A stretch of 63,143 nt of DNA, the filler included, from Dugesia japonica (Eukaryota): assembly GCA_001938525.1 (NCBI GenBank). It is 6 parts of 6 records of this genome, joined end to end, with 100 filler letters (N's around TTAATTAATTAA, not from the genome) between each part and the next. Parts side by side here need not be neighbours in the genome. Positions count along the whole stretch, not along the records: positions 9,965 to 18,697 come from MQRL01588090.1; positions 18,798 to 28,207 come from MQRL01277058.1; 4 more parts are not named here. One strand, 5' to 3'. The notes under the pieces were generated by a model. It searched no databases, was not told where the DNA came from, and was given only the letters and a program-made list of their open reading frames with translations. Position 1 is the first letter of the stretch, and each line of letters begins with the position of its first letter. Made by a program: the position numbers and the translations under genes. Shown one piece after another: positions 10,281 to 47,799 of this stretch.

Positions 10281-13200
10281 ATCCCCTCCTTCAAAATGTT
10301 TTCCATCTTTTCAGCCATTCAATTCTTCTGGTTTTTAAACCATTTAAAAACTTGATTTCTACTTGATGTGCTGATACAAACCTCACTATATGGTATGGCC
10401 TTTTATACAGCAAACCGTTTTTCTTTGGTTTTTGTGGTTCTACTCGGACTAATACACAACTCTTCCATTTTAAAGTATCTTTGTCCTTGCTTATCTTTCT
10501 CGAAGTTTTCCATTTTCTGCGCCACCTTCTTCAAATTCTGTCGCACTATCTCTTCTCTGNNNNNNNNNNNNNNNNNNNNNNNNNNNNNNNNNNNNNNNNN
10601 NNNNNNNNNNNNNNNNNNNNNNNNNNNNNNNNNNNNNNNNNNNNNNNNNNNNNNNNNNNNNNNNNNNNNNNNNNCTAAATTCGACTCTCGGTAATAATGT
10701 CTTCCAATCTTTCTCATTACATTTCCCTTTTATTGATATCATAATCATATCCCTCACTATCGGATCATCCGTTCTACCAAACCATTCAACTGGTGCTGAT
10801 ACGGGGAACTAAATTCCTGTACAATTCCAAATTTTTCTAGTTTCTTTGCCATCAGTTGACTTTCAAACATTTCACCTCTGTTAGTCAGAGTTGATTTTGG
10901 TTTACCAAAACGGTATATCCATTTGTTCAAAATTATCATAAAAATCGTCTCTTCATCTATCTTTGAAATTTCAGATAAGCTGACTAGTTTGCTTAATGAT
11001 CAATAATCACTACCATATATTTCTTTTCAGACTTGCTCTGTTCCATATGAGCTATGTCCACAAAGATTTGTTCTAAAGAATTTTGGCTTCTCCATGGTAT
11101 AAGTTTTTCTTTTATATGACTTTGTACTACTTTTCTTTTGGCACACATCTCGAATTTATCAATATTTTCAATAATTGTCTCGCACATCCCTGGCCAGAAA
11201 TAACCATCATATACATAAGAAAATAACTTTTTCCTTCCAACATGACATAAATCTTCATGAATTTCTGTTATCACTTTATCAACTATTCTTGTCGTAACCC
11301 CTAACAAACATTTATCTCTTCTTTTTACTACTAACAAATCATNCACTATTTTCAATTCGTGCTTTAGTTTATTCCAGTAGCTTCCTTGTTCACTAATTTT
11401 AGTCTCTAAAGCATCTTCTCGCAAGATCGTTAAACAGCTTTGTATTTCTGAATCTTCTGTCTGGGCCTGTCAAATCATTGTAATTATTTCGGTATCGTGT
11501 TGAATTCCATTGATATGTTTCACTTTGGCTTTTTCTCCTTTTGCGTCTATGTNNNNNNNNNNNNNNNNNNNNNNNNNNNNNNNNNNNNNNNNNNNNNNNN
11601 NNTTTCATGCTACATTGTGAACATAAACTCTCCTTTAGCCTCAACAACCCATCCGCATTGTTGTGTTCTTCGCCTTTTCTATACTTGAGTTCAAAATCAT
11701 ACTCTACCAAATACGCCATCCACGTCTGGAATTGTGGACTGATTGGGTTCTTGTGTTGTTCGGAAGCACCAACGCTTTGTGGTCCGTTCTTACCAGAAAT
11801 CTCTTTCCATACAGATATTGTTTGAGTTGTTGTACAAATTCGTGTATAGCTAATAGTTCTTTTCTTGTCACAAAGTATCCTTTGTCATGAGCTGTCAAAT
11901 ATCTGAATCCATACGCATTTACCACTTCCTTTTTATCTTTGCATTGACTAAAGATTGCATCGATAGCCCCAAAACTAGCGTCGGTGTCTGAAATGAACAT
12001 CTGTTCCTCCCTGAGATATTCTAATACTGAAGCCCGATATAACTTGTCTTTTAACGCATTAAAACTGTTCTGTCCAAACTAACGGTTTGTTGCAACCTGA
12101 AGTTTCTTCATATAAAGATACTGCTATCTTTGCATAATTTTTTATGAAACATTTGTAGTAGTTAGTTAGTCTGAAAAACGAACGGAGATTTGAAGAACAT
12201 TATGGAACTATAGCATTCTTAATCTCCTGAATCTAAACTTCATAAGTGCGTATACCAGTTGCATTAACTGTATGTCCCAAGAATAACACTTCTTTCTGAT
12301 AAAACTTACATTTCTCAGGGTTTATTCTTAATCCTGAGTCTCTGATCTTGTAAAAGACCTTTTCTAACATTTTGTCGTGATCCTCTAAAGATTTTCCGTA
12401 TACCAGAATATCGTCCAGATATACAATAACTCCTTTGAAAATTAATCCCTCCAATAACTCGTGCATTAACTTTTGAAAAGTGGTCAGTGCTGTAGCTAAT
12501 CCAAAAGGCGTTCGGTTAAATCTGAATTGCCCTTCCTTTGTATGGAAAGCAGTTACATCCCTTGACTTTTCCGCTAACTCCACTTGATAATTAGCTTAGC
12601 CGAGATCAATCGATGAAAATAACTTTGAGCCAGACAAACAATTTAATAATAACTGAATGTCTGGCATTGTCAAAGAGATTTTTTCTGTCCTCAAATTCAT
12701 TGGTCTGTAATCCACGCACATTCCTATCGAGCTGTTCTTTTTACCTGCAATCACTTATGGAGAATTTCAAGGACTTTTACATTTGCTAATAACGCCAATG
12801 TTTGCGTTTCTTCAATTTTCTTTTCTAAATGCATCGGCTGTCTTCTAGGGTGCTGTACTATTAGATTTCCTTTAACCTTTATTTCATGTATTACGTTTTT
12901 CGTATGCCCAATATCAATTTTTGAAGCCATAAATATCTCACCAAAATTTGGGATCAATTGAACCATTTTTCTGTTATCAATTACTTTAAACCACTGCAAC
13001 GCTTTATTTTTTCTATCTTCATCAGAATGNGCTATCTTCAGACTCTCATTTTCGATGTTATTTATTGGGATAAGATAGTTAATTTTAATCCAAAACATTG
13101 CATTTTATCAATACCGCCAATTAATTCTGGGTGCATCTGTCTAACTATGATGACTTTTATTTTCCTGATTTTCTTGTTCCACTGGATACTTAATTCTGCT

Positions 13201-14510
13201 ATACCCAACGGTTTTTCTCTGATATTGCACATCCACGACAACGGTTTTCCAATTTTAATCCAATAGTTCTCACTTATGACTGTCGCCAAAGCTCCTGAAT
13301 CCCACAACATCTCTAACTTAACTCCATTAACATCTACTCTACTCCATTCTAGTCCATCTTCCTTTTCAAACATCTCTCCTCTTTCATCATCATTTTGATT
13401 TATTTTATCTTTTTCTATACTGACTCTATCGGATTTTTTTCTGTCTTTCTGGTTTTTCCCCATTACTACATCATGATCTGTCACGCTCTTATCGTCTTCT
13501 TTTGAATTGTCCACTTCCTCTTAAATACACAAAATTTTAGTGTTCCTTCTACTGGACAAACCCTGTAAAATCGAACAAGATCTAAAATTATGTCCAGACT
13601 TGCCGCAAATTAAACATTTGTCTTAATTAGCATTGGTATCGTTTATGTCTATATTCTCCACAGTAATAACATTGTTCCTCTTGGAGTTTCTCTTCACCAG
13701 GTTCTGGAAATCCTCTTTGTCTATTAAAATAACATCTTGCCAAATATTTCATTGATACTGTCGGTTTTGACCTTATCACTCGTGTTCTATCTTCTATCAT
13801 CACTAGTTGTGTGTTTCTCTTATATAATCTTTTTACTGGAAAATTATTTAAACGTATTTAATGTATATCCTCTTCAACTCTATTTATGTATGGTTTCACT
13901 ACATTTGCATAAGTCACCTTTTTATGTATCATACAGATATCTTCCTTTTCGGCTATTCGTTGATAATGTTCCTAGTCCTCGTAAATCTTTGCTAGGGATC
14001 TTATTTCCATGATCTTAATTTCAAGACGTGTTGTCAATGTTTCTCTAAACTTCGTATTTTTCACCTTCTTTGAGAGTACGTCATTAATTATTTCATCTTT
14101 TCTTAGTTACAAATTCATGACATTATTTATCAGATTTCTTAATCTGATTTCGAATGTTGCGAATCTTTTTTCAGTCTCTTGTTTTACCATTGCTAATTCT
14201 AGAATATGCTATGAAAACGATTTTTTTAATCATAAATGTGTCTGTAAACCATCTTTTGGCTTCTTCTGTTTTAATCTCAATCTTTTTAAAGAATTCCTTC
14301 TTCACCTGAGAATAGGAGATCAAAGATATGCAACAAATTGAAATCGTTAACGATAGTCCACTCCTCGATATCCTTAAACCATTTCGAAGATTCTTCTGCC
14401 CCTTTTCCATTATATTTTCTGACGTTAAAATTTATTAATTCTTGCGCTTTCTTTAGTAACGCATCTAAAATTGTTTTACGTGGATGCTGTTGCCTTGTCA
14501 CAAAATTTAC

Positions 14511-15479: not shown

Positions 15480-18400
15480 TTTAGGGTCATATTTTTAGCA
15501 AATTGAAGAAATCTGCAAAATTTAAAGAATATCAAAAAAAGATTCCAAGTACCTTTATTTTATCTACAATTTTCCGTCAGCAGTTCTGACAACTTTTCAA
15601 GAATTGTTAGATACAGAATCCAAACACCATTTACAGGTCTTAGAGAACCTATAATCAACAGCTGCAAACTTCCAACCTCATATCGTGTGAATAAAATGTT
15701 TCTCCTCGAACCTCTGGGAGATTAAAGATCGTCTTTGACAACTACGCAGACACTTCCAAGAAATAGAGCCTAATTGCAAAGATTCACACTATAGCTTGCT
15801 GTTAAGAAATGCCTTCATAAGAGCTATGCCTTGAAATATCAAGCCTCATCTCGTCTTCAAGGAAAACTGTTCATTGACAGAACTTGGACAACTGACTGAC
15901 AGATGTGCGCAAATCGAATTTTCAACAGTTTTACAGAGCATCATGAGTCGAATAAATTCATGTGAAGTACAGTAACTACGAGATGAGATAAATCAACTAA
16001 TCACTAACAAAAGTCAATATCAACAGATGGAACTTGTTATTACCACTGCAAATATNNNNNNNNNNNNNNNNNNNNNNNNNNNNNNNNNNNNNNNNNNNNN
16101 NNNNNNNNNNNNNAAAATGACAAAGGTTCTCAATAATTCCGGTAATTGAAAACCCCATCACCCTTGAACCGGAACTAATCTCTACAAAATTCAATGTTCC
16201 AGCAAATTATCCAAGCCAGGTAATGAATTTTCTAAGCGACACAAGAGCAGATTTTAGTATTCTACAAGCCAAACAATTTCACATCAATCACTGTAAAACG
16301 ACCAAACAACTAATTTCAGCTAGTGGTAGCACAATACCAACTCAAAGACAACACACGTTGTGCTTTACCATTGTTGGACTTCCACAAAATATTCAAGTAG
16401 ACATTCATTATCACAGAAGTTCGTAAACCGATATTGAGATCAGATTTTTTCAGACATAATGTCATTATAAGATCAGATTTCTTCAGACATAATGTCATTA
16501 TAATAGACTATCGAGGGAATCGAATTATTCTCGACAACAACATAGCGCAAGGATCGCGAAAGAATGATCATTCTAATAGAACAGCGGACAATTATAATTT
16601 ACAACACAAACCAGAACTTTGAATCTTGATATCTGGACACCCTATATTTCAAAAATCTCAACAACTAGCTGGAAAAATGCTTGAAACGGTTTGCCATGGA
16701 TTCGACAAGTCTTTAGAAAAAGGAATTGTTAGTAGAACCATAAGTCCCTGGGCATTTTTCTTGGTTTTTGTCAAAAAGAAAGATAATACCTATCACCCAT
16801 GCGGTGACTACTGAATACTGAATGCCGCTACCATTCTTGACAGGTATCTTTTACTTCGGATTTCAAATATTCTAGATCGTTTGGGAAACAGCTCCATATT
16901 TTCGACAATCGAGCTGGAGAAGGCTTACCATCAAATACTAACCAATCCAGAAGATATTCAAAAAACAGTATGCATCACGTCTTTTGATCTTTTTAAATAT
17001 ACAAGGATTCCATTTTGACTCCGAAATGACTCACAAATTTTACAGCGATACATAGACTCAATTTTTGACCACACTGAAAGCTTCGCAACATGCTATATTG
17101 ATGATATCATNATATTTTCCAAATCAATCGGTGACCACAAAATTCATTTAAAAACTATTAAAGAAATTCTGACGAGAGAAAATCTTCAAATTAATGAAGC
17201 CAAAAGCAAATTCAGAATGGCGTCTGTTGATTTCTTTGGATGCAATATATCTTCACAAGAAGAATAAACCAATCAAAACTCAATATAATAATAGACTGTC
17301 CCTCACCAAATACTGTCAATTCGCTAAGAAGATTTTTATGAGCAGCCACATTCTACAAATGGATTACTCTAAATCTCTCTGAAATAATGGCTCCTCTTCA
17401 TAATCTGTTAGCATCGTTGAACAATACTCGCAGAAGCTACAATGGACATTTGAGCCTGAAAAGGCTTTTTCAGATATCAAAGCAGCACTGAATCGAATTA
17501 AAAGTATGGCTCCACCTGATTCAAACAAAACGTTAATACTGCAAATGAATGCATCAAATATCGCCGTTGAAGCAAGTCTGAATCACGTAGTCAAAGACAA
17601 ACTTGCACCTATCGCATTTTTCTCAAGAAAATTTAACAAGACAGAACAAAGATAATCAATCTTTGACCGTGAACTCTTAGCCATCTATCAAACCATTCAT
17701 CAAAAATTTCAAGCATTACTTAGAAAGCAGCGAATTCACAATTTAACAGATCAGAAGCCACTGCTATATATCCAATCAATGAAAAACCCAACAAACAGGC
17801 ACGGGCGGCATATTGAATTTATCAGTCAGTTCTCATTTCACTTCAAATGCGTAAAAGGAATCAGAAAACGACGTAGCTGACTTCTTATTCAGAATTCCAG
17901 AAGAACTATCTGAAGGCGAAATATTTTCAATAACAAAGGATGAATTGATAAAAGAAAAACAATCAGACGCTTCACTCAGAAAATAACACTCACCAAAAAT
18001 AAAAAAGATCAAGGGAATCTTGACAGGTAATTGCACACAACCCAGAATTTTGCTACCAACGCGATACAGAAAGACTGAATTTGACAAAGTATACAACATT
18101 TCACATCCAGGGGCCAAGAAAACAACAGATTTTATTCGAGCTCACTACGTATGGCCAAAGATGAAACCAAATATCCAAGAATGGACGAGGCAATGCCACA
18201 GATGTCAATCACAAAAAATGACACGTCATAAGCTATACTTTTTTAAACGTCTTCCTGAATTAGAAAAGTTCAAAGTGATACATATGGATATTGTCGGACC
18301 TCTATCCCAATGTGAAGGAAAGTGATTTATTCTTAAGATGATCGATCGTGAAACATCTGAAGCAATACCATTAAATGAGATAACTACAAAGCGGTTGTAG

Positions 18401-18602: not shown

Positions 18603-18862
18603 AACGATATGTTTTTAATTTGAAGTCTAATAAAATAAATAGAAATATTTACAAACTATGCATACAATTATTATAAAAATATATAAAGAAATGTTTTNNN
18701 NNNNNNNNNNNNNNNNNNNNNNNNNNNNNNNNNNNNNNNNNTTAATTAATTAANNNNNNNNNNNNNNNNNNNNNNNNNNNNNNNNNNNNNNNNNNNNTAT
18801 ATATATATATATAAGTAATAGGAAAACCACTTTTTAGGCTCAGAGGGTCACCCTTTTTTATC

Positions 18863-18970
18863 ATGTCACGTGTCACATTTACCATACCAAATGTCACATG
18901 TCACGTGTCACATTTACCATACCAAATGTCACATTTCACGTGTCAAATGTCGCATTTTACGTGTCACATT
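18863..18970 (+). repeat. Subterminal tandem repeats with CACGTG boxes
   Basis: 35-bp unit ATGTCACGTGTCACATTTACCATACCAAATGTCAC twice plus degenerate copies. CACGTG at 18867, 18902 and 18937. Confidence 0.85.
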
Positions 18971-19056
18971 TCATAATAAAATTTCATAATAACATCCTCT
19001 TAAATAACAAAACATCCTCTTTTTACTCTCTATGATTAAATTATTTCTTTATAAAA

Positions 19057-22000
19057 ATGCCAACGAAAATAATTAAATGCGAAAATTGTAATAAAACATT
19101 TAAAAACTTAGCAGGTTTAAAGGGTCATATTAGATCTAAAATCTGTATTAAATCAGCAGATCAATTTAAATGTAATAAATGTAATAAATTATTTAAAACT
19201 GAAAATGATCTAAAATCCCATTTAAATGCAACAAAATGTGGAAATGAAATTGTCCCATTATTCTGTGAAACATGCAATAAAAAATTTTTAAAACAAAATC
19301 ATGCAAGAACACATTATAATTCTCCAATTCATAAAAATATGGTAATTAAAAAAGAAAATGAAAAAAAGGCTCGCGAAGAGGTCATTAAAAAAGATGAAGA
19401 AATTAGAGATATTTTAAAACCATATTCTGATTATGATATTGAATATTTAGGAAACACTAAAGTCTCAATGTATTATGATGTGGAAAAATTATATTCAATT
19501 CCTATTAGAAATATTAATGCATTTAAAAATGACGTGAAAGAAATTATCACTAAATATTTTAAATCTACAAATGAAGTAGTTATTTATTCAATTGTAGTAA
19601 AATGTAGATATATAAAAGAAATTAATAATGAATATTCCCAAGGAGACTTTTATTCTCGTTCTAAAAACAATACAATAACATTTTTAAATGAGATCAATGA
19701 TAATGTACATGAAACATTTCAAGAATTAGAAAAACTTATTGAAGATGAAGATCGCGAAGGATCTGGCTGGTCATTTTTGCATATTTTAAATTATACATTA
19801 GAACTTTTTAAATATCAATCTAAAAATGGAGCAACATTTATTAAATTACCATTTAAAAAACAAGGTGTTATAAATATAGAAAACACAGATGACAAATGTT
19901 TCTTATATTCAATTCTAGCTCACAAATATCCAGTTGATAATCCAACACGTGTTTCTAATTACACTCCACATTTATCAGAATTAAAATATCAAAATGAAAT
20001 ATTACCAATGAAAATAATTGATGTCTCTAAATTTGAAAAATTAAATAATTATCAAATAAATGTTTTCGGTGTCAATGATTCTATTTCACATCACACAAGA
20101 AATCCTAAACCTGAAGAAAATAAATGCAACCTTTTGATATATAAAAATCATTATATTCTATGTCGAGATCTAGGTGTATTCTTCTCAAAAAATGGAAATA
20201 AAAATTATCCGTGCATACGATGTATGAATTCTTATTCCAGTGAAGAAATATTAATTGAACATCAACAAGCTTGTATTAATCACAGACCAAATAACATTGT
20301 ATTTCCATATAATAATTATTATTATTTTAATAAATTTTACATGAAAAATAAAATACCTTTCATATTAATAGGTGATTTCGAAGCATACACAGATATTACA
20401 ACTAAAAAACAAAAAGCTATATCTTTAGGAATTTATCTTCACAGTGAACACCAAAATCTATTAGAATCTAAATATTATGAATTTACTTCTGAAAATATTT
20501 ATCTTGAATTCTTTAAATTTTTAGAAGACACTAATGAAAAACTAGAAGATATAAAAGAAAATAAATTAATAAAAGAATGTCTATATGACTACCCAGCATA
20601 TAATAATGAAAATTGTTATTATTGTAATAAAATAATAAAAGACACTCCAGTTTTAGATCATAATCATTTCACAGGAGAACCTCGTGGATATTCATGTAAC
20701 AAATGTAATTTAAATGATCTCTCAGTTAAAAATCTATTTATACCATTTTATTTTCATAACGCATCCGGCTATGATAATCATTTATTTTTCAGAGAACTTC
20801 TAACAAAATTTCCAGGAAAAGTAAAAAAGATAATTCCACATTCTTCTGATAATTATATTTCATTTTCATATGAAAATATTAGATTCTTAGATTCAGCCAG
20901 ACTATTACCATTTACATCTGTTGAAGTAATGGGTAATCTTCTAACATCTTCAGGAAATTATCCAATATTAACATCCTATAATCTAAGACCTAAAAAAATA
21001 ATATTTCCATACGAATATTTAAAAGGTAACAATCCACAAGAAGTCATAGAATTATTAAAATCCAATAGAATCCCAGAGAAAAATGATTTCTTTAACACTC
21101 TAACACAAAAATCAATATCTGATACTGATTATCAAGAATTTTTAGATGACTTATGCGGAGCACAAACCGAAGGTGGCACAAGAAATTTTGAAAATATGCT
21201 AGAATACATGTTACACTATATGAAATTAGATGTTTTAATTCTAACAGATTTCTTAGAAAATTTTAGAGTTTCATGTTTAAATAATATCCTAAAATTAGAT
21301 CCATGCTATTCATATTCAGCACCAGGATATTCATGGGAAACTGGAATGTTAAATGCAAATATAAAACTTAAATATGCTAAACCCGAAACCTATGACATTT
21401 TCTTAACAGTTGAATCTGGAATACGCGGTGGCTATTCTGGTGTTCTAGGTGAACGTCAAGTATTTTCACATAATAAAAATAAAGAACCATTTACTAAACA
21501 AATGAATAAATCTCAATTTGAAGATCTAATAAAAATGATGAATACCCAAGAATTTCTTCCAGATGAATATCTTAATGATTTAATGGAAGAAACATTTATA
21601 AAATATATTGATGAAAATTCTCTTTACGCATCATGTATGACAAGACCATTACCAACAGGTGAATTCCGTGAGTGTTCTGAGTTAACATATTCTATTTCAA
21701 CAGATAACATTAATTACATCTATGAAGTCGATCTTGAATATCCTAAAGAGATCCACGATAAAACAAAATATTTTCCACTGGCACCTGAAAGATTACTTAT
21801 CACTTCTGAAATGTTATCTAATTACCAATTAAGCTTTCAACGAAAATTAACAAAAGATAATATTAAACTAACATTAAATCAATTAGATAAAAAGAATTAT
21901 ACTGTCCTCGGTTCAACATTAGATCTATATCTCAAACATGGCATGAAACTTACAAAAGTTCACAAAAAGATTGAAATGAAAACATCTACATGGTTTAAAG

Positions 22001-22872
22001 AACATGTTCACAGATTAATCTCTTTAAGAAAAGAATCTAAAAAAATAAAAGATGTATTTGGAGATTACATTTACAAGTTAATGTTAAATGCTTTCTATGG
22101 CAAAACCCTAGAAAATATCAGAAATCGATGTAACATTGAAATTGTTGATAATGAGAAAGATTTCCGAAAGTTTATAAGAAAACCAACATTTAAATCATCT
22201 AAAATCTTTTGTTTAAATGATTCAAATGAAGCCACAGTTGCCGCAGTTAATATGATAAAATCCAAATTAAAATATAACAAATTTCCATATATTGGTTTCA
22301 CAATCCTCGAACATGCAAAACAAGTAATGTATGATTTTGTATACAATCAACTACAACCGTTGATTTTTGAAGATAACTATAAAATTCATTATTCCGACAC
22401 GGACTGCGTCTTTATAGAAATAAAACATAGAGATAACTTAATAAAATTAGAAAGTTTACTTGGCGATAATCTATTTCAAATGAAAGATGAAAAACCTAAT
22501 TGTGAAATATTACAAGGTAATTTTATAAAATCAAAATCATATTCTTATTCTTATACCGAAAGCCAAGGACAAGGCTACGACTCTAGAAATAAAGGTGTCA
22601 AGAAAAATAATAAATTATTAATGTCAGATTTTGATTCAGTATTAAATGATTCCAAGAAAATAATCTATGGAACAAATTATACATTAAAATCAGATTGTCA
22701 TGAAATTGAATTAATTTCTCAAAAGAAAATTGCATTAATGGCCTTTGATGATAAAAGAATCATCGAAGATAACGCAACAAAAACATGGCCACATGGTAAC
22801 CAATTTTATTGTGAAACATGCTTACAATGGCATTTAAGATTAGATAAAATCAACAACCTCTTAAATTGTTAA
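19057..22872 (+). CDS. polB: Protein-primed family B DNA polymerase with N-terminal C2H2-type zinc fingers, OTU-like protease region and HNH/endonuclease VII-like insert
   Basis: 1271-aa intact ORF. ExoI IGDFEAY, ExoII FHNASGYD, ExoIII YMKLDV; polymerase motifs YIDENSLY, KLMLNAFYGK, YSDTDC. EndoVII-like CYYC..DHNHFTGEPRGYSCNKCN. DDKCFLYSI...NHY Cys/His pair. Confidence 0.96.
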   Translation: MPTKIIKCENCNKTFKNLAGLKGHIRSKICIKSADQFKCNKCNKLFKTENDLKSHLNATKCGNEIVPLFCETCNKKFLKQNHARTHYNSPIHKNMVIKKENEKKAREEVIKKDEEIRDILKPYSDYDIEYLGNTKVSMYYDVEKLYSIPIRNINAFKNDVKEIITKYFKSTNEVVIYSIVVKCRYIKEINNEYSQGDFYSRSKNNTITFLNEINDNVHETFQELEKLIEDEDREGSGWSFLHILNYTLELFKYQSKNGATFIKLPFKKQGVINIENTDDKCFLYSILAHKYPVDNPTRVSNYTPHLSELKYQNEILPMKIIDVSKFEKLNNYQINVFGVNDSISHHTRNPKPEENKCNLLIYKNHYILCRDLGVFFSKNGNKNYPCIRCMNSYSSEEILIEHQQACINHRPNNIVFPYNNYYYFNKFYMKNKIPFILIGDFEAYTDITTKKQKAISLGIYLHSEHQNLLESKYYEFTSENIYLEFFKFLEDTNEKLEDIKENKLIKECLYDYPAYNNENCYYCNKIIKDTPVLDHNHFTGEPRGYSCNKCNLNDLSVKNLFIPFYFHNASGYDNHLFFRELLTKFPGKVKKIIPHSSDNYISFSYENIRFLDSARLLPFTSVEVMGNLLTSSGNYPILTSYNLRPKKIIFPYEYLKGNNPQEVIELLKSNRIPEKNDFFNTLTQKSISDTDYQEFLDDLCGAQTEGGTRNFENMLEYMLHYMKLDVLILTDFLENFRVSCLNNILKLDPCYSYSAPGYSWETGMLNANIKLKYAKPETYDIFLTVESGIRGGYSGVLGERQVFSHNKNKEPFTKQMNKSQFEDLIKMMNTQEFLPDEYLNDLMEETFIKYIDENSLYASCMTRPLPTGEFRECSELTYSISTDNINYIYEVDLEYPKEIHDKTKYFPLAPERLLITSEMLSNYQLSFQRKLTKDNIKLTLNQLDKKNYTVLGSTLDLYLKHGMKLTKVHKKIEMKTSTWFKEHVHRLISLRKESKKIKDVFGDYIYKLMLNAFYGKTLENIRNRCNIEIVDNEKDFRKFIRKPTFKSSKIFCLNDSNEATVAAVNMIKSKLKYNKFPYIGFTILEHAKQVMYDFVYNQLQPLIFEDNYKIHYSDTDCVFIEIKHRDNLIKLESLLGDNLFQMKDEKPNCEILQGNFIKSKSYSYSYTESQGQGYDSRNKGVKKNNKLLMSDFDSVLNDSKKIIYGTNYTLKSDCHEIELISQKKIALMAFDDKRIIEDNATKTWPHGNQFYCETCLQWHLRLDKINNLLNC

Positions 22873-22881
22873 TATAGAAAA

Positions 22882-23622
22882 ATGGGTGATAATAATATAA
22901 CAGAAGAAGAATTAGTAAAATTAGTTAATTCTAGAAAATGTAAATCTGTGAAGATCAATGGTAAAAATTATTATATTTCTAAAAAAATTAAAGATGAACT
23001 CAAGAAAGTTCCAAAAGAAGGTGGATTTGCATTTCTAGCTGCTATTCCAGCAATAATTGCAGCATTAGCAACTTCAACTGGAATAGCATCTGGAATTGCT
23101 TCTACAGTTTCAAATTCTAGAGATGCTATCAAAAAACAAAAAGAAACAGAATTAATTGAATTACAAAAACAAAATGAGGCTAAAAAACTAGCAAACTCCA
23201 CAGGACCAGTTACAACCACAGGACAAGTTACAACCACAGGATCAGGAATCAAAAACCACGAGGGCAACAAGAAAAAAGCAAAAAAACATGGTAAAGGACA
23301 GAAAAAACAGAATAAAGCAACAAGCGCGAAAAAACAGAAAAAACATGGTAAAGGTATTTTTTTAAATCCATATCAAGGAACTGCAATACATAAATATTTA
23401 AAAAATATTGATCCTAAATTTAAATCCTTAACTAAAAAGTTTAAATCTGGAACTCAAATAATTAAGAAAGGAAAAGGTATTTATTTAAATCCATATAAAT
23501 CCGGAAAAGGTATTGAAACTGAAACCGAAGATGAAGATGATGATGATGAAACCGAAGATGAAGATGATGAAGATGATGATGAAGATGAAGATGATGAAAC
23601 CGAAACTGAAGATGATGAATAA
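22882..23622 (+). CDS. Putative virion core protein (adenovirus pX/pVII-like), basic with an acidic tail
   Basis: KEGGFAFLAAIPAIIAALA resembles the GG+hydrophobic segment of adenovirus pX and of Polinton core proteins. Repeated GKG/GSG motifs, duplicated GKGI(F/Y)LNPY, K-rich middle, D/E C-terminal tail. Confidence 0.7.
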   Translation: MGDNNITEEELVKLVNSRKCKSVKINGKNYYISKKIKDELKKVPKEGGFAFLAAIPAIIAALATSTGIASGIASTVSNSRDAIKKQKETELIELQKQNEAKKLANSTGPVTTTGQVTTTGSGIKNHEGNKKKAKKHGKGQKKQNKATSAKKQKKHGKGIFLNPYQGTAIHKYLKNIDPKFKSLTKKFKSGTQIIKKGKGIYLNPYKSGKGIETETEDEDDDDETEDEDDEDDDEDEDDETETEDDE

Positions 23623-23673
23623 AACCCATAAAATCCATAAAGGAAGAAAGGGCCAAAATTAAATCTTTATAAA

Positions 23674-24945
23674 ATGGTTGAAAATAGAATTAAAGATTTA
23701 AAAGCTCTAATTGCTGCACAAGAAAAATATAATATTTTTTTCTGTAATAAAGTTCAAGATTATAACACTTTACAATCTAATTTATCCACTTTACAATTAC
23801 CAACTATCTCCGCAATTGAAAAACTTGGAATAAAACAAGAAACAATAGAAACTAGAGATATAACAAAATTCTTTTTAAATGAAAAAATCTTACCATTCAC
23901 ACCAGAATATTCAATTGATAACATTAATGCAACCGGGAAATTAACTCAAACAATTATTCCTAAATTTTCTAGATTAGATATTGCAGCAACTGATAAAATT
24001 AAAAGTTTTATAGAAATAAATTTAAAAGGAAATAATATTTATTTATTCACCGAAGAAGATAATAAAAGTTTCTTATTTAAATCTGAAGTTATACCATACA
24101 CTGATGGAATTTTTAGATTAATCCTAGGAAACCTAGATGGAAAAGAAACACCTGAAGATATCGAGACTTATTTAAAATTTATATCTCCTTTGCCAACTAA
24201 TTGTGATTATGTTATTAAATTAAAAAATAAATTTAGAAAAGTTGAACTCGAAAAACCTAAAAGATCCAAAGAAAAATCCACAGGGGACGGAAAAATATCT
24301 ATCCCACAACAAGAATCAGAACCTGAAACAGAAAAATCAGTAATACAAGAAAACTCAACCAAGGAATTATTAGCAATATTTAATAAAGATAATTTAGTAC
24401 CATATGAATTTAAAAATACAATAACAAAAAAATTAACAGAATCAACAACACCAGAAGTTTTTAAAAAAACTATTAATGGAAAAGAATTCAAGTTCATGAA
24501 ATTTCCTAATAATGTTAATAATATATATTTTTATAAAAGGGATGATTATGGTTATTATCATGATGGTATAAGAAGTCATGCATTAGATAATAATTTAATT
24601 AATATATTTTTAGGAAACACAGAAAATCTAACAAAGGAAGACATAAAAAAAAATATTGTTACATATGCAAATTTGGTAAAACCACCTGTTGATGATGCAT
24701 ATTATAATTCTTTAAAGAAAAAAAGTGGAAGTGGACTCAAAAACCAAAACCATAAAGGAAGACACAAGGCAAAAACGACTAATCCATTAGCATTATTTGA
24801 AAAGTTAACATTGTTAATTTCAGCTGCAAAATCTGGACATAACAATTTACATGCTGAAATTAAATCTTTATGTAAACAATTAAAATCTAAAGGTTTATTA
24901 TCTAACAAGATATATAAAAATTATAAAACTAAATATTTTAGCTAA
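23674..24945 (+). CDS. Conserved Polinton uncharacterised protein
   Basis: 423-aa intact ORF. The C-terminus SGSGL...PLALFEKLTLLISAAKSGHNNLHAEIKSLCKQLKSKGLL matches the P.EL..RL.LL.AS..AGN....EI..I...L...G.I motif common in invertebrate Polintons. Confidence 0.7.
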   Translation: MVENRIKDLKALIAAQEKYNIFFCNKVQDYNTLQSNLSTLQLPTISAIEKLGIKQETIETRDITKFFLNEKILPFTPEYSIDNINATGKLTQTIIPKFSRLDIAATDKIKSFIEINLKGNNIYLFTEEDNKSFLFKSEVIPYTDGIFRLILGNLDGKETPEDIETYLKFISPLPTNCDYVIKLKNKFRKVELEKPKRSKEKSTGDGKISIPQQESEPETEKSVIQENSTKELLAIFNKDNLVPYEFKNTITKKLTESTTPEVFKKTINGKEFKFMKFPNNVNNIYFYKRDDYGYYHDGIRSHALDNNLINIFLGNTENLTKEDIKKNIVTYANLVKPPVDDAYYNSLKKKSGSGLKNQNHKGRHKAKTTNPLALFEKLTLLISAAKSGHNNLHAEIKSLCKQLKSKGLLSNKIYKNYKTKYFS

Positions 24946-24950
24946 ACAAA

Positions 24951-25622
24951 ATGTCTCATCAATTCTTAGTAGTTGGAACAGAACAAGATTTAAAAATTAA
25001 TTTAGATTATCCGATAAAGTTAGATTCAGAATATGAACTTGGCATGTTATATTTTTCATGTTACAATATTATTTTTAATATCAACAATCTAAATAATAAA
25101 TTCATTATCGATGGAAAACCACAAGGGCTAGAACCAGGATCATATGAAGTTAAAGAAATATCAAATCGATTAGAAAAATATCTAGAAATTAAACCTGACA
25201 CTGCAACATCTAAATGTAACATCAAAACTAAAATCACAATAGAATTTGATAACAAATCATTCTTCCATACATTACTAGGATTTAAACCTGGAAAATACGA
25301 TCCTGGAAATTATTATTCTTCTGATAAGATTAACATTACAAATATTAACTCGATAAATATAACTTGTAATATTGTTAAAGGTAACTATGTCACTAACAAA
25401 CAGGACACAACAAATATTAATCTTTTATATTCATTTCCAATAAATACCGTTCCATTTGGATATAAAATAGTTGAACGTCCATCACCAGCNNNNNNNNNNN
25501 NNNNNNNNNNNNNNNNNNNNGACGGTTTTAAATTTAACATCGTAGATGAAAACTTTAACACCATCGACTTTAACCAAGAAACAATTACAATTTTAGCTCA
25601 TTTACGTAAATATCGACTTTAA
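24951..25622 (+). CDS. Minor capsid protein (penton, single jelly roll)
   Basis: PIKLDSEYELGM, FNINNLNNKF, PGSYEVKEI, INITCNIVKGNY, PFGYKIVERP, IVDENFNTIDFNQETITILAHLRK are Polinton minor-capsid signatures. Confidence 0.88.
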   Translation: MSHQFLVVGTEQDLKINLDYPIKLDSEYELGMLYFSCYNIIFNINNLNNKFIIDGKPQGLEPGSYEVKEISNRLEKYLEIKPDTATSKCNIKTKITIEFDNKSFFHTLLGFKPGKYDPGNYYSSDKINITNINSINITCNIVKGNYVTNKQDTTNINLLYSFPINTVPFGYKIVERPSPXXXXXXXXXXXDGFKFNIVDENFNTIDFNQETITILAHLRKYRL

Positions 25623-25708
25623 AATATCTGTTTCTGAAGTGTTTTCAAAAATATCTGTAATAGGTTTAGGTTTAATATTTTTGATTAAAGATGCCAAAAA
25701 GACATTTT

Positions 25709-26256
25709 CTAAATTTTGTTGTCTGTCTTTATGGCCTTTATGGTTTTTATATAATCAAATACTTCTTCAAGTGAAATAATAGGATTTTTTATTCTAAAAT
25801 TAAAATAATTAAATATATCATAACAAATTTTTATTTCATCATTTGTCAAAGGTGTTTTTCTTTTATTGGAAACATATCTATTTAAAACTTTAATATATTT
25901 AGGCTTATTAAATGGATCAATAGGATTATTTCTTTTTTCTTCAATATACATTTTTATTTCGGAAACACCACTTTTTAAACTTACAAAATTATAAATATCT
26001 TCAAGATTTTCTTCAATATCACCAGATTGATAAATAATATTAAATCTTTTTTCATCAACATATTTTTTTAAAACATTAATATTTTTTTTTGAATTTATAA
26101 ATTTAAAAATATTTATAAAATTTTTAATATCAATATAATCAATATAACTAAGATCTTTTTTTTTTCTTCAATATACATTTTTATATCCCAAATAGTGTTT
26201 TTATAATTTACAAATTTATAAATATCTTCAAGAGTATAAATGTTTTCAGGTGTCAT
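25709..26256 (-). CDS. Antisense accessory ORF (~180 aa) with an internal repeat and one frameshift in an A10 run
   Basis: ATG at 26256. The frame is restored by one extra A at 26156-26165. LEDIY(K/N)FV...IKMYIEEK occurs twice. Confidence 0.55.
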
Positions 26257-26305
26257 TTTAAGATATTTTTTTTAATCATAGAGATTCAAATCTAATATTT
26301 AAGAA

Positions 26306-26824
26306 ATGAGCGAAGCCCATAAAAGAAGAACCATAAAGGAAGAAAGAAAATGGAATTTATTAGATTTTTTAAAAACATTTGGAATCAACACAACAACAAA
26401 TTTTGATTTATATTCGATCAGTAAATTTTTAAATCTTCCATTAGAGATTTACATGAAAAATGAAAAATTTACACTGACCTCCGGTATGAATTATATTTTT
26501 AATTATCAAAATTCAAATCAAAATGGAACACATTGGGTTGCTTACAGTAAAGGTTATTATTTTGATTCTTTTGGTTTAAAACCTTTAAAAGAAATCTCAG
26601 GTGTAAAAGTTTATAATAAAATTCAAGTGCAACATTTCGGAACTGAAATATGTGGCATTTTATGTATTTATTTTTTATATAAAATTCGACATACCAAATT
26701 TGACATGATAATATCTGAAATGAAAGATTTATATGAAGAGCTACGCGAAGAAACCATAAAGGAAGAAACCATAAAGGAGAAAAATTTAGATATAGAAAAT
26801 AGCAACAAAGGAGAAAATGAATAA
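26306..26824 (+). CDS. Adenain-like cysteine maturation protease
   Basis: GTHWVAY, YFDSFG and QVQHFGTEICGILC supply the His-Asp-Gln-Cys catalytic set of adenovirus/Polinton proteases. Confidence 0.92.
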   Translation: MSEAHKRRTIKEERKWNLLDFLKTFGINTTTNFDLYSISKFLNLPLEIYMKNEKFTLTSGMNYIFNYQNSNQNGTHWVAYSKGYYFDSFGLKPLKEISGVKVYNKIQVQHFGTEICGILCIYFLYKIRHTKFDMIISEMKDLYEELREETIKEETIKEKNLDIENSNKGENE

Positions 26825-28127
26825 GTTTGGTGCTACTGCTGATTCTGGCAATTCAACAGAAATATTAAAAAATGTTAATGCTAAAATAAAAAACTCAGAA
26901 GCTCAGGCTGAAAATAAATATGTAAATGAAACTGGTGATACAATAACATCTTTAAAAATAAAAGAAGATCCCAAGGATCTTTCTGATGCAGTTAATTTAA
27001 AATATATAAAGTCACTTGAAGAAAAATTAGAAAGACATGAAATTATTTTCAATAGATTATTAAAAGTTGATAGTTTTACAGCTAACAAATTATATTTAGA
27101 ATCTAAAATCTCTGAATTAAAAAATTTGAATATCGATATTACAGTTCTGAATTCTAAAATTCAAAAATTAACAAAGAACTGTAATCAGGATACATTTGAC
27201 AATATCAATTCTGACATTAAAAGATTAAAACTTGAACTGTTTCCATATAAAAAAAGTGATTTATTAATTAAATTTAAAATAATAGCTAATGATGCAAATT
27301 TATCTGAAAAATTTAAAAAAGAAATTGATATATTAAAAACAAGAATTAATATTTTACATGATGATATCGACAAGAAAACATTTGACATTTATATAATTTC
27401 TATTAATACAATAAAATCTAATATAGAAAAATATAAACCTATAATTTTAAAATTAACTTCTGAAATTAAAAAAGTAAATGAAGAAGGGCGAGATAAAATA
27501 TATTCTAATAAAATTGATGTTGCATTTAAAAAATATAAAGAAACACTTTCTAATGAAACATTTTCAGATTTAAAAGAATTAATTGATAATCACATACCAT
27601 ATATTGGTGTGAATGGGAGTTATAGTATATTTTTAATTTTCAAATTAATTTTTATAAGATTTAGTATTATGGATAAATATGTTAATGATTTTAGTTTTAA
27701 AAAAAGTTTTTTGGATGATTATCTTGTAAAACCTTTTGAAATTCATTTACATACAAAAGTAAATGAAAAAATTAGTATAAGTATTACTGGTCATTGTAAA
27801 ATTGAAAAATTTACATATGTCATTAGAATTAATAATATTGCAGTGCCATTTTTATATGTAAAACCTGAATCTGGAAATATTAATATTTATCGTGAAAGTA
27901 CTGAAATTAATAAAGATCTAAATATAAAATATATTGTAATAATTTTACCTGAAAAAATTCATATAAAAGTAATAAGTGTTAATTTATATAAATTAGAAAA
28001 ATTTGAAAAATTAAAAGAAGAATATAAAAATAAAAAGTTTCATAAGTTACATGTTGACAGAATTAATGTTTATTTTAAAACTTATAATTTAAAAGCTTTA
28101 ATAGAAATGTTTGATAATGACAAATAA
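26817..28127 (+). CDS. Putative fibre/attachment-like protein
   Basis: 436-aa intact ORF overlapping the protease stop. The N-terminal KYVNETGDTIT...DPKDLSDAVNLKYI resembles viral fibre anchor repeats (GDTMTG, DAATKKYV) and is followed by a coiled-coil-like region. Confidence 0.5.
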   Translation: MNKFGATADSGNSTEILKNVNAKIKNSEAQAENKYVNETGDTITSLKIKEDPKDLSDAVNLKYIKSLEEKLERHEIIFNRLLKVDSFTANKLYLESKISELKNLNIDITVLNSKIQKLTKNCNQDTFDNINSDIKRLKLELFPYKKSDLLIKFKIIANDANLSEKFKKEIDILKTRINILHDDIDKKTFDIYIISINTIKSNIEKYKPIILKLTSEIKKVNEEGRDKIYSNKIDVAFKKYKETLSNETFSDLKELIDNHIPYIGVNGSYSIFLIFKLIFIRFSIMDKYVNDFSFKKSFLDDYLVKPFEIHLHTKVNEKISISITGHCKIEKFTYVIRINNIAVPFLYVKPESGNINIYRESTEINKDLNIKYIVIILPEKIHIKVISVNLYKLEKFEKLKEEYKNKKFHKLHVDRINVYFKTYNLKALIEMFDNDK

Positions 28128-28307
28128 TATGTTTATTTAGAAAATAACAATTCAATATTAACACTGCTGGCTGCGAATCAAACACTGAATGATAAATTTC
28201 ACATTAGNNNNNNNNNNNNNNNNNNNNNNNNNNNNNNNNNNNNNNNNNNNNTTAATTAATTAANNNNNNNNNNNNNNNNNNNNNNNNNNNNNNNNNNNNN
28301 NNNNNNN

Positions 28308-29614: not shown

Positions 29615-31118
29615 TTGTAATCATGAGATAATAAATAAATCAAAGTTAATTTCAATAATTAGCATTCATTTTATTATTAAACACAAACCAATCACATTTG
29701 ACTTGTTAAAATTATCAGACAATTAAAAACGCTCTCGATTTTTATTGGTTAATGTTTTATTTCTCTGAGATGTTATCGCATGTAAATTGTTGTTTTTATG
29801 TTTGCTTGTTAGTTTGTGTTTCGAAACTACTCTAATTCCTCAAAATAAATAATCTCACATTTTTTTGTTAATTTTTATAATTCAGTATTTTTATGTTTAT
29901 ATTTGTTTGCTGCACCCATTATCAATTCGATTTGATTTTAGTTTTGTTACATTATATTTGAGTATTTTTCACTGTTAGTTTAATTATCACATTAATCAAT
30001 GAAATTTAACTATGTAAATAAATGTGTAAATTTGTTTTGAATTTTCATTGATAATGTAACAGATTTTTTCCAAAAAATTAGTTATAATATTTACAAAGTT
30101 TAAATTAAAATTAAAAAAATATTTCAGTAAAGAATGAATTTATTAAACTTTATTATATTNNNNNNNNNNNNNNNNNNNNNTTATTAATATTTGCAAATCA
30201 AAGGAGACTTTTCAAAGCTGAATTTTTCCATACACTAAAGAGAATAATCTTTATTTAAAATGACAATCAATTTACTGTCATCATTAACCAGTTACCAGTG
30301 TCCACTTCAGAACTTTTAGCGTTTTTTGTATTACACCAAATCGTTAATTTTGAAAAGAAAATTCATAGTAATTATATACAAAACTTTACACCATATTTAA
30401 ATTTTAATTTAAAACTAAATTTAGGATCTTTTTATTAGAAAATGTTTCCATTAATAAAATTAAACAACAATGAACTCTTTGATCCATCTCTCTGTTACTG
30501 TTATACAGCTATTTTTGTTGTTTAAGGCAAAACTTTTCTATTGCTTAGAGCACTGAATTGTCGACAACTTTGGATACGTTTGAAGTGTAAAAAATAATTT
30601 CTTTAATAATAATAATAATAATAATAATAAATCTTCGGAATATTGGACAAATCTCTTCACCGTCGAACTAAATGAAAAATATCCTACAAAGCAAAACAAA
30701 TTAATCAACAAATAATTAAATTATACAGAAATACTACCTATTTTTCCAGAAGGTTTACAGCAATTTGTGGCAAATTGTTGGAATTTTCGTCCAAAAACAG
30801 CCAATGGAATATCGATCTGAAAAGAAAATTAGTATAAAAAGGACAAAAAACATACGAAATTTACCCTTAACAATCTTGTCATTTGAGATAACAATCCAAT
30901 CATTGAAATAAATTGTTATCCAAGTAGAAGAAACATCGATGGAGCACAGAAAACGAGGCAGACCACGTGTCGAAACCAGTTATGATCAAAACGGAACACA
31001 AATTAAACCGACAGAATATCAACTCAAAACAAAATAATTAGAAGCCAAAACATCTCACCTGAACAGATTATCACAATAATTGGGTCAACAATCAAAATAC
31101 AAACATGTCAACGGATCA

Positions 31119-31510
31119 TTATCGACTAATAAAATTGGAAAAGATCTCACCAAAATACTTTGTCCAGAAAAACGATCTTGAACCGGCAAATTAGAAACAC
31201 CTTCTGAAGTAGAAAATTTATCACAAGTAATTAAACCGATTTTAATAAAAATACCATCGACGAAATAAAGATGTGCTATTAAACCACGAGTAGAGAATGA
31301 AAGTGTTGTATGCGAGTTATGGCGGGTTGGAATTACAAAAGGCAGAGCAGTAACCATAGCGTTTCTACTTCACCAGGCTATATACACATTGTAAAAAGAT
31401 AAACCAGCCAAATTCCCAGATGGAGGACAGTTCCGCATGACAGGAATTATATAGAGAACAATTGAACCATGGATTCATCAACAGGGTGGATTGTCAGCAT
31501 TCATTAAATC
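31119..31510 (+). pseudogene. Bcl-2-family-like domain (BH1 and BH2 motifs)
   Basis: One frame with in-frame stops. ESVVCELWRVGITKGRAVTIAFLL (31299-31370) versus Bcl-xL BH1 EQVVNELFRDGVNWGRIVAFF. RTIEPWIHQQGGLSAFIK (31455-31508) versus BH2 HLEPWIQENGGWDTFV. Confidence 0.7.
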
Positions 31511-31634
31511 AATGTTACCACAGAATTGTAATCAAACAGACCTTTCAGCGAAAGTAAAAAGAGTGTTAAAAAATTTGTTAAAAAGTATTACAGGTTCAAT
31601 GTCATAAAAACGAGGTAGATCAAATACAGGATCT

Positions 31635-33600
31635 ATGTTGCCGATTTTAATCATGCTAATGTTGTTAATATTACCAGGGACACAATGAATGGTAGCGTTC
31701 GATGGCGATGAGATGGACTTTGGAGAGAAAGTTTACTCCTTAGTAGATACAGAAGAGTGTTCTGATGCGAACCCAGAACAGTTTGAGTCTATAAAAACTA
31801 TTCGGTCTATCAAATATATCAGGAATGCGATTATTATCAAGCTATGGTAGAAGAGTGTATAGTAACAGTAGCCACCTTCGTATTTAATTGTGGATATAAA
31901 AGTTGGTAATCTGTAATTGATCCAGGATTAAAAAAGAAACCAGTATTATTAACTAGACAAAAATGCAAGCAAGGATTTGTGTTTCTAAAGATAGACTTAA
32001 AAACAGGCGTCACGGTGAAAACTAAAAGGGATTTGTAACTAGTCAAAAGTTAATCACAGTTGAATCAATATCACCAGTAGACAACGAGTATTATATACGA
32101 TACGGATTCATATACGATAGATGGTATAGTAGCAAAAAATGTGGTAGTAATAGAAAGTTACACTGTGGAATTAAAAGAATTTAAAGCACTATTCGATGTA
32201 GATGGCTTAACAATGAAAACTCAACCAGCGTGTAGAGCGTCAGACAAATCATGTAGTTCAGGAATATCGACACTTGTATACGATGTATAGCTAAAAAAAT
32301 GTAAAATGATCTTTTTAAAGAAGTTAATATTCAACGAATATCAAGGAAAGCGTTATCAGGAACCAACAGAAAATTTAGAATCGTTTACTGAGAGTAAAAA
32401 AGCAGGTAAAGCCGCCGAGGAAGGACCACAAGGATTAGAAATGAAATGGATGGACACACTAATTTTATTGATTTTAGTTAGCAAAAAAGATGGAATCAGA
32501 TTAATAAAAAATAAAGCAATATAAAAATGGGAAGGCATCGTATATAAAACAAATTATAAAGGCCTACATATCTTGGAACGAAAGTTAGCAGGAGCACAGC
32601 ATATCATTGGGAACGAAGATATAAAACTACATCTGTATATTAATAATAAAATGGATTTCCTGTATCACAGAGACAAGGCTCTGTAGAAAAGATGTATCAC
32701 GATTTGGTACATAATGACTGTATATTAAATCAAGAATTGTTAAAAACAAAACTATCAATAGCAATAAAAAATCCTGATAATGTAGCACCACTACTTCCTT
32801 TCGGTAAAGGACAATTTGCCAGAAAAGTGGGAGAAGTCATGTACATTTATCCGTGCAAAGAAATGTCAGCCATAATGACTCCAAGACCGAAAGACAGAGA
32901 AACATGTTATAACGAACTAGAAAATTGGTATATAAACAAAACAAGATACGTGCAACCTGTCACAAGAATAATATCACCGATGGACTATATTCCAAATCAA
33001 ATAAACTAATTTAATATTTTAGGACCAATGTATGTAATGCCAAATGAAAAATGAATCAGATTTCAGTATAGATCCACATGGGATCCGAAACCTCAAAAAT
33101 TTCTCTTTGATCAAATTGAACGGCGGGGAAAGATTTGAATCTCTAAACGTAGCAGAAAATGGAATTTATAGCTCGGACGATTTAGCCAGAGCTCGTGAGC
33201 ATATGCTCTTCCCAGTAAAAAGAATGCAAATATTATCAAAAATAGTACAGATAGCTAACGGAACGTTATGCAATAGAAGACCTAATTACGATCTATTATT
33301 ATCACCAGATCACTTTCAACAAGCAACTCACAACGTTATGAAAAAGTTGTGGGATAAATTCATAATATTTGGCTAAGTAATGGTAGGGTTATTAAGAATT
33401 ATATTAATTATATATATCGTGAAAGTAGTCATCACACAAATGTTTGCTTGTTTCGATATATACGGGAGAGAAAAACGAATAAATTAGAAATTAATGACAG
33501 GAATATTTCCGTTCTGAGCAAAGACAGTTGTACTAAACAGCCACACAAAAGATATCTATCAAATAAAGAAATTCCTCAAGAAAATGAGTAAAAGACATGG
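31635..33600 (+). pseudogene. env: Chuvirus-like (class III, gB-related) envelope glycoprotein
   Basis: Signal peptide MLPILIMLMLLILPG, then AFD..YSLVDTEEC, FNCGYKSW, MYHDLVHNDCILNQELLKTKLSIAIKNPD, GEVMYIYPC, CYNEL..PVTRII, GIYSSDDLARAREHMLFP and a TM helix at ~33378-33450. Collinear with chuviral glycoprotein motifs. Confidence 0.82.
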
Positions 33601-34310
33601 AACAGATCAGGAAATTGGAGCACAAATCAGACAACTATGCATCGAATATCATACTTAAAATCACTACAAAATCAGCTACAACTAAAATGGAATGATATTA
33701 CCAGCAGTGAAAGCAATGAATCGGAAGGAAATATTTAATCAACAAGTTATTACAGAGAAAAAGCTCCAGATTACGATGAAGTTGTACGAAAAGACAGATA
33801 ACAAGAGAAAAGAAAAGCCAAAAGGAAATAAAAATTAACAAAGTTGAAAAATCATTCAAAGCCATATATCAAAGAAATGCACAAACATACACAAAAAGCA
33901 TTCAAAGCCATATATCAAAGAAATGTACAAACATAAAATCTAGGAAATCCGCAAGTAACCAATGCATGGGTAATATGTAATGACGGATTATATTATCCAA
34001 TGGAAGATCCAACACAACTGAGACGAATACCTAGATTATATGATTTTTTAAATCTACCACTATACCCAAATTGGACTATGCCAAGAATGCATTATCACCA
34101 GGTCAAACAATATAGCAACCAATAAATTTACCAATGCCACAGAAAATGGAACCAATAGTACAGCGAAACATTATGAGCTCAAGAAATTCCATGATACTAC
34201 AAGACAATACACAATCACCAGTACGAAACCGACAGCCACTAACAATGCAGAGCAGTCAAGAGTTAGAAGCAAAAACAGTCTGTACAGGAACAACAGCAGA
34301 AGGAAGTGCT

Positions 34311-34630
34311 TTACTAATGAAAGTAAAATTTAATGACATAGAACTAACATAGCCGATCAACACAGCAGCAAGTATATCGATGATACATCCATATGCACTC
34401 CCACTACAGACACACGGACCAATGCAAGGAACGAAATTTAGGATCAGTAGTCTGGACGGATGAGTTATCTAACCGCTCGGACAGATAAACTGCTCAATCC
34501 ACAGAGAAAACGCACCAAAAATTCGACACACATTAACTGTAATGGGTAGATTAGCCTACAGTTGTATCTTGGGATTGGATTTACTGCTGCAAGTGCTAGA
34601 TAACGGTATAATTAACTTAAATCAATTAGG
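34311..34630 (+). pseudogene. Retropepsin-like aspartic protease, copy 1
   Basis: LLMKVKFNDIELT*PINTAASISMI...ISSLDG...PLGQI...SCILGLDLL. Catalytic DTG reads NTA here. Confidence 0.7.
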
Positions 34631-34691
34631 AATATTCAAGGAATCGAATGAAAATAATAAACCACCAAAAGTTACTCAACAAGTTACACCT

Positions 34692-34853
34692 TGTGCAATA
34701 TGCGGAGTAAAAAGACATAACGCATTACAATGTCAATTGTCGAAATCTAAATGCCATTCCTGCGGAAGAATCGGTCACATAGAAAAAATATGCTTAGCAA
34801 AATCATCATGATGTTACAAGTGTGGAATAAGAGGTCATAAGGAAAAAGAATGT
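34692..34853 (+). pseudogene. Three CCHC zinc knuckles (nucleocapsid)
   Basis: CAICGVKRHNALQC, CHSCGRIGHIEKIC and CYKCGIRGHKEKEC, each C-x2-C-x4-H-x4-C. Confidence 0.92.
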
Positions 34854-35208
34854 TTCAGAAATGCAGTTCTAAGTCAACTTTGGCTTGGAGAATAAGCTAG
34901 TAGAGATAACTTCATGATAAACGAATCAACAGAAACTATAACAAAAGGATTCGAGGGAGAAAAATACCAACTGCAACTTACAACAGTGGTAAAATTCATG
35001 ATGGCATAAAAAAATGCCACCACCAATGTCAAATTTAGCCGGAAAATGGGAGAATTTCAAACTCAACAGAATACACGGAAATCCATTGAATGATTACGAG
35101 GATATCGACCAAATTCATTTAGAAGAATACGAAAATTTAGATAAAATACAAGCAGGCCGAGGCATCAAAGAGAAAGTCTTTTATGCATTCCGTCCAGGCG
35201 GACCACGA

Positions 35209-43800: not shown

Positions 43801-44242
43801 TTTCTCAATATGCAGAATTAAATATTTCAGCATTGATTGCAGATAGCGTGCGGTTCACATTTTTTATTAGTAATACATTTTCAATTATGGTTTTACATTC
43901 TACCAAATTTTTAAATTGGTTTAATTAAATTCAAAAATTAATTTCGTTTGTTATAATTTAATTTATCGTTAATTGTTTTATTATTCCATAAATTCAATCA
44001 TTAAATGCATAATTTATTATAAATTTCGATTATTGTTGGAATTAATTGTGAACCGTTTATATTGATTAACAAAAAGAAATTGATTCATTTGAAATATTTT
44101 TATTTCTCCACAATTGATTTTCTTTATATATTGGTTGTGACTTCTGCTTGTTTGTTTTCGATTGGTAATCATAAATAATCTTTGTAATTTTTTAAGTAGT
44201 TTCGCTACCTTTTCAACATTCATACATTTCAATTATTATCCC

Positions 44243-44296
<54 letters not shown>

Positions 44297-47632: not shown

Positions 47633-47799
47633 TCTCATTCGTTTGTTTATACGTGATGCATGCGATTTTTTGCGTTTTTTATTAGTTGGATCTGTTTTGG
47701 GTTGATTTTTTAGCATATTTGTTATTTCAGATGGTATTTTTTAAGTTATATGTTGTAATAATATACCAGCTTCTGTTAGAGTCATACGGTTAACTCCAC

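Follow-up and report, generated by a model that had tools for sequence, protein, structure and literature searches.

Introduction

Polintons, or Mavericks (class Polintoviricetes), are described as 13-25 kb long, with terminal inverted repeats (TIRs) and target duplications of 5-8 bp (PMC10748475). For vertebrates, 96% of Maverick loci are reported as degraded and 134 intact elements are recorded from 17 species, with a median of 8 copies and a maximum of about 287, and, according to the same source, nobody had yet seen animal Maverick particles as of 2021 (PMC8097293). Among adintoviruses, a PLA2-pX gene is given as typical of the Alpha module, and PolB class and accessory genes separate Alpha (PLA2X) from Beta (GasderminX/Cupiennin) (Starrett et al. 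2021, PMC8502044). In planarians, a large Maverick expansion is reported for a low-GC genome (bioRxiv 10.64898/2025.12.11.693146), and polintons are described as held down by PIWI/piRNA (PMC8532177). Here we analysed a window, the whole stretch of 63,143 nucleotides (nt) filed under Dugesia japonica (assembly GCA_001938525.1), whose third scaffold (18798-28207, 9,410 nt) consists entirely of a Polinton element. The scaffold comprises the left-hand 9.4 kb of a single Polinton/Maverick, most copies of whose family are diverged and some broken, and we consider it quite probable that this copy is young, integrated and at present silent, and that its family resides in the genome of the host.

Layout of the arm and its polymerase

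The scaffold carries six open reading frames (ORFs) on the plus strand, 1271, 246, 423, 223, 172 and 436 aa long at the coordinates we computed, which occupy 8,331 of its 9,410 nt (89%); when the scaffold was shuffled 200 times, no stop-free frame exceeded 156 codons. An earlier first-pass annotation of the window had read them as a Polinton/adintovirus arm, and the identities of the polymerase, penton and protease bear this out. Its description of the ORFs as tightly packed and free of stops holds in part. Four of the five junctions are short (-8 to 51 nt) but the gap between penton and protease measures 683 nt, and the six ORFs are free of stops, except that the penton ORF spans a run of 31 N bases along which openness is not observed.

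The scaffold begins with a (TA)8 run (18798-18813), a probable host flank, from which insertion into a TA microsatellite may be inferred. The left terminus follows (18814-19056, plus strand); it starts with AGTAAT, five of the six bases of the (AGT)2 end motif (PMC8097293), continues with 21/35-nt subterminal tandem repeats at 18862-18992, and is a candidate left TIR. The TA run together with the AGTAAT start suggests an integrated element. No partner of this terminus was found in the window, nor in the 80 nt between the stop of the last ORF and the scaffold break (28128-28207), a distance that agrees with the earlier annotation.

ORF1 (19057-22872) encodes a protein-primed polymerase of 1271 aa. 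Its Pfam match, PF03175 at 2e-14, is weak and C-terminal and is accompanied by zinc fingers and an endonuclease-VII-type (HNH-type) insert, and a PDB search with the ORF1 polymerase profile matched only zinc-finger chains. Its relatives number 11,748 at E≤0.001 and 1,368 at E≤1e-30, the best three being 35-48% identical. All catalytic residues of Exo I-III and Pol A-C are kept, as in protein-primed PolB enzymes (pPolB). A candidate priming serine (S236-G) and a putative vOTU pair (C281/H365) are conserved in the expected order, and these motifs match the N-terminal domain with terminal protein and vOTU described in bioRxiv 2024.03.18.585575. An HNH-like motif is present in 79 of the 150 best ORF1 matches, so such an insert does not set this element apart. 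Among full-length relatives of the polymerase, the closest (P0001) belongs to a cluster of 39 members, of which the 15 listed span 286-1144 aa and lie mostly on contigs above 0.8 Mb; four of these 15 are full length, so that another eukaryote genome also holds intact and broken copies. In a quick tree, the polymerase of the related locus L108 fell into the same supported clade as ORF1 (support 98).

Virion-type and accessory genes

ORF4 (24951-25622, 223 aa including 11 N codons) gave a predicted model with a predicted local distance difference test (pLDDT) of 76. The mavirus penton was its top match (Z 9.7, root-mean-square deviation 7.8, 204 aligned), followed by a Paramecium bursaria chlorella virus 1 capsid chain (Z 9.6), a Sputnik chain (Z 9.2) and another virus capsid chain (9.2), with the best unrelated structure at Z 6.5. 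By its predicted fold, ORF4 is a minor capsid protein of the single jelly-roll type (penton), and the 11 X codons left by the 31 N align with 11 residues of relatives. ORF5 (26306-26824, 172 aa) is an adenain/Ulp1-type cysteine protease: H76, D87, Q109 and C116 are invariant in 14 aligned sequences, and its profile matches S273R of African swine fever virus at 4e-10 and the adenovirus protease at 8e-9; a single-sequence PDB search with ORF5 returned chance matches only. The N-terminal extension of the protease resembles the protease's own 3' repeat.

The other three ORFs gave weak to moderate matches, from small profiles of related-locus ORFs. ORF2 (22882-23622, 246 aa; profile E 1e-5 among the six ORFs) is basic and core-protein-like, with a pX-type GGF-hydrophobic motif, G-K-G repeats and an acidic tail, and had no match to the PLA2 domain found in some relatives. 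ORF3 (23674-24945, 423 aa; E 5e-10 among the six ORFs) is a conserved Polinton protein of unknown function, common to relatives only in its C-terminal helical domain. ORF6 (26817-28127, 436 aa; E 2e-5 among the six ORFs) is weakly fibre-like: it shares an N-terminal motif with the fibre-like ORFs of relatives, the remainder being unassigned, and folded alone it reached a pLDDT of 32. Structure-atlas searches with ORF6 and ORF3 gave no usable match, ORF6 yielding a lead only (score 0.76).

In penton, protease and ORF2, the nearest loci include L033, which bears PLA2-pX by Pfam, and its relatives L034, L025 and L002; this may be a likeness to the Alpha-type adintovirus (Mayetiola) module, drawn through related loci. 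Unlike the PLA2X-bearing loci, the element has no PLA2 match in its ORF2. The penton closest to ORF4 is that of L051. In the relatives L051 (2607-7523) and L108 (5261-13846), ORF3 lies beside the penton and the protease beside the fibre, but capsid and ATPase are placed differently.

A resident family and the age of the copy

Part of the scaffold is contained in 11 of the 24 listed public runs, from 5 studies, with 36% of sampled words in the best run. At a threshold of 85% likeness, 36,191 contigs in run X1 and 36,205 in run X3 fitted the scaffold, most of them 90-99% identical and with depth in 30 of 30 bins; those of X1 comprise 3,542 at 99% or more, 7,898 at 95-99%, 16,098 at 90-95% and 8,653 under 90%. 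Median summed depth was about 14,000, against 3-42 for single listed pieces, and we infer that the host genome carries the family in numbers of the order of hundreds of copies, if not more. In coding regions of the family contigs, insertions and deletions are found at minority level, so some family copies are broken.

The copy in the window differs from the family majority, both by private letters at deep sites and by a spacer that other copies skip. This 683-nt spacer (25623-26305) contains a duplicated small minus-strand gene start, seen in the ORF calls as an 80-aa minus-strand ORF (25951-25709) and a second similar start at 26178 that closes after 21 codons. The segment 25623-26350 is rare in the family, with a depth of 45-260 versus about 20,000-70,000 alongside, and joints in other family copies link the penton stop to the protease with about 730 nt left out. 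We relied on this repeated skip, which is backed by the dip in depth, and not on other joints hinting at different gene orders in the family, whose sides are 20-31 letters long.

Such abundance bears on the clean frames themselves, which could in part be an assembly effect if near-identical young copies had been collapsed into one scaffold and their private lesions averaged out. The very high copy number, the short scaffolds (8.7-13 kb) and a scaffold whose start lies in a microsatellite and whose end falls within the element are all in keeping with this. A family-wide majority sequence is nevertheless excluded, since at 8 listed coding sites with depth above 1,000 a letter other than the scaffold's makes up at least 97% of the depth, and since the rare spacer stands beside far deeper sequence. 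A small young subfamily may have been collapsed; as an account of the open frames we hold assembly collapse to be unlikely, and prefer a single young copy of the resident family.

The open frames limit the age of this copy. With a stop risk of 6-7% per substitution, 8,313 open coding nt cap neutral drift below 0.5-0.6% at 95%, which makes this copy, or a small subfamily collapsed into it, probably young. Replacement and silent differences at depth above 1,000 stood at 5/3, counted in the 25 coding rows among the 40 shown of 998. A very recent insertion, as first proposed, is thus upheld in relative terms, as neutral decay below about 0.6%; the insertion itself would follow from the TA run and the terminus.

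Expression and the case for a free virus

The run search listed no RNA run as containing the scaffold, and the small shares in rows X8-X11 carry no weight. In two RNA runs with the same species label, 20 of 10.5 million reads (X12) and 28 of 11.6 million reads (X16) aligned to the scaffold; all of them aligned only partly and nearly all ran on into unlike sequence, which is background. Transcripts, for which the first-pass annotation had proposed an RNA-seq search, were not found in either run, whose strain may differ, and this argues against transcription of the family in these two samples.

The same annotation had offered an active virus able to form virions as one explanation, and this is not supported: the start in a TA run is like that of an integrated element, the family is a high-copy resident with broken copies, and real RNA reads are missing from the two runs. 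A virus that was free, or replicating at the time, and was sequenced together with its host would explain the open frames and the kept catalytic residues, some adintoviruses are described as assembling with free ends (PMC8502044), and the exact copy is not evident in runs X1 and X3. It would have to be reconciled, however, with the TA run ahead of the terminus, with thousands of diverged and some broken relatives in host runs, and with the two RNA runs. Viral contigs, scanned with a single protein, also gave no close relative; none of three candidate stretches was confirmed, and the best segments were 23-30% identical over long matches. We therefore regard a free virus as very improbable, and retain a silent, integrated copy as the explanation.

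Several points weigh against this explanation in turn. ORF1 deviates at 21 of 129 near-invariant columns, the most among 31 rows (1-18 in the others); these departures fit a divergent lineage, yet could hide a loss of function. The RNA comparison covers two samples, at 6% and 25% of each run, with no host-gene control. Summed contig depth is no copy number. With only 36% of sampled words in the best run, and with several sites at which no aligned contig has the letter of the window, these runs may represent a different strain or sister species, perhaps without this copy. The right arm, the right TIR and the target-site duplication of the element were not seen, as the scaffold is cut off. Finally, the profiles for ATPase, capsid and integrase, on which the comparison with related loci relies, were built in part from the same loci that they scored.

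The unseen right arm

Major capsid, ATPase and integrase had been noted as missing from the visible part, and we found no match to any of them anywhere in the scaffold. In nine loci with a penton related to ORF4, the fetched DNA held an ATPase in 9/9, a capsid in 7/9 and an integrase in 7/9, several of them confirmed by Pfam. Gene order is highly variable between related loci, and among the 11 loci of at least 7 kb a fibre-like gene is the outermost recognised gene in six and internal in the other five.

These arrangements bear on a further possibility, namely that the family is helper-dependent. It would then keep an intact polymerase, penton, protease, core protein and fibre, end soon after the fibre and lack its own genes for major capsid, ATPase and integrase; such a high-copy family of about 10 kb would borrow capsid, packaging ATPase and integrase from another Polinton family in the genome. 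The stretch from the terminus to the fibre contains none of the three genes, capsid and ATPase stand in a same-strand block among or before ORF3-penton-protease in L108 and L051, and the outermost fibre in six loci is in line with an end close to that gene. The wide variation in gene order and the internal fibre in the other five speak against this, however, as do the last 80 nt, which contain no right TIR, and the published size of 13-25 kb, which leaves 4-15 kb unseen (PMC10748475). Moreover, open vertex genes without a capsid would require trans-complementation. We consider a helper-dependent family unlikely, and a Polinton/Maverick copy whose right arm lies beyond the scaffold break remains the reading that we favour.

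Other features of the window

The window is made up of six scaffolds of 8.7-13 kb each, joined by identical artificial linkers (N44-TTAATTAATTAA-N44) at 18698-18797, again at 28208-28307 and at three other places, which are not biology. The six scaffolds are unrelated to each other, so the contrast between the Polinton and decayed elements is not a contrast at a single locus. The first-pass annotation had placed the element amid otherwise decayed elements; it occupies a 9,410-nt scaffold of its own, and that framing is a product of how the window was constructed. The other mobile elements are indeed broken, with the reverse transcriptase, RNase H and integrase of gypsy elements present as short stop-bounded pieces and the capsid of a second Polinton interrupted by stops.

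This second Polinton, decayed and of another family, lies at 46725-50472 on the minus strand of the scaffold 41376-50483, with ATPase, integrase, penton and major capsid in the same gene order as in locus L016. Its penton consists of a single open frame of 286 aa and one additional piece, and its major capsid has 7 stops in 286 aligned residues. Its broken capsid, ATPase and integrase were considered as the missing right arm and rejected: they are on another scaffold, and their own penton does not align with the ORF4 penton (best E 1.7).

A broken gypsy-type long terminal repeat (LTR) element spans 31000-41275, and its env-like gene upstream of pol matches a Monjiviricetes fusion glycoprotein (E 6e-18). 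Another env fragment is located on the first scaffold (955-1164), the scan for gypsy and env fragments having covered 136 of 153 stop-free segments. Two more gypsy-type pol remnants lie in opposite orientation on one scaffold (10760-13520, minus strand; 17019-18322, plus strand), split by stops and frameshifts. A host SepSecS gene (selenocysteine synthesis) extends over 58153-63076 on the minus strand in several pieces, which are probably exons (best PDB matches E 5e-33), with 119-nt tandem repeats between pieces and an apparent short in-frame intron within 62648-63076. Since this gene lies in pieces, the host can be read from the window itself as an AT-rich eukaryote, probably an animal.

Discussion

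The element is like animal Polintons/Mavericks in its pPolB with Exo I-III and Pol A-C, in the candidate terminal-protein and vOTU motifs of the polymerase N-terminus, in its penton and Ulp1/adenain protease, in its AGT-like end and intronless packed ORFs, and in a family with few intact copies among many degraded ones. Its HNH-type polymerase insert likens it, by description, to pPolB2 Polintons with an HNH insert reported from nematodes and oomycetes (Jeong et al. 2023, PMC10748475). Unlike typical animal Polintons, it shows no integrase, ATPase, major capsid, right TIR or target-site duplication on its cut-off scaffold; its polymerase is only 35-48% identical to the best three relatives; and its apparent copy number is far above the vertebrate Maverick median of 8. 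By analogy only, a large expansion in a low-GC genome, alongside gypsy elements with a mononegaviral-type env, recalls the Maverick expansions of planarians.

From what is known of the family, the polymerase would use the terminal-protein domain that it carries as primer at the AGT-like end, the vOTU domain of the polymerase would free the terminal protein, and an rve integrase would insert the linear DNA copy. The virion module would include penton, protease, core protein and fibre; a double jelly-roll capsid and a packaging ATPase are needed for it as well, and both are expected in the unseen right arm. The DNA may be packaged into icosahedral particles in which a double jelly-roll capsid is joined by penton and fibre and which the protease would mature. 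Of all these components, the scaffold shows only the polymerase, penton, protease, core-like and fibre-like genes. Host silencing might be the reason for the absent RNA.

An intact copy among fossil copies is the usual Polinton pattern, and what our analysis contributes is one more Polinton family, divergent and very abundant, in a class that is already well described. Interest centres on whether capsid, ATPase and integrase are encoded in the right arm, and the half-element leaves the particle question unanswered. If it is true that the family lacks these three genes at high copy, satellite-like dependence between Polinton families would be shown. Because particles of animal Mavericks were unobserved as of 2021, young copies from a species represented by many public data sets make useful material for study of Maverick particles.

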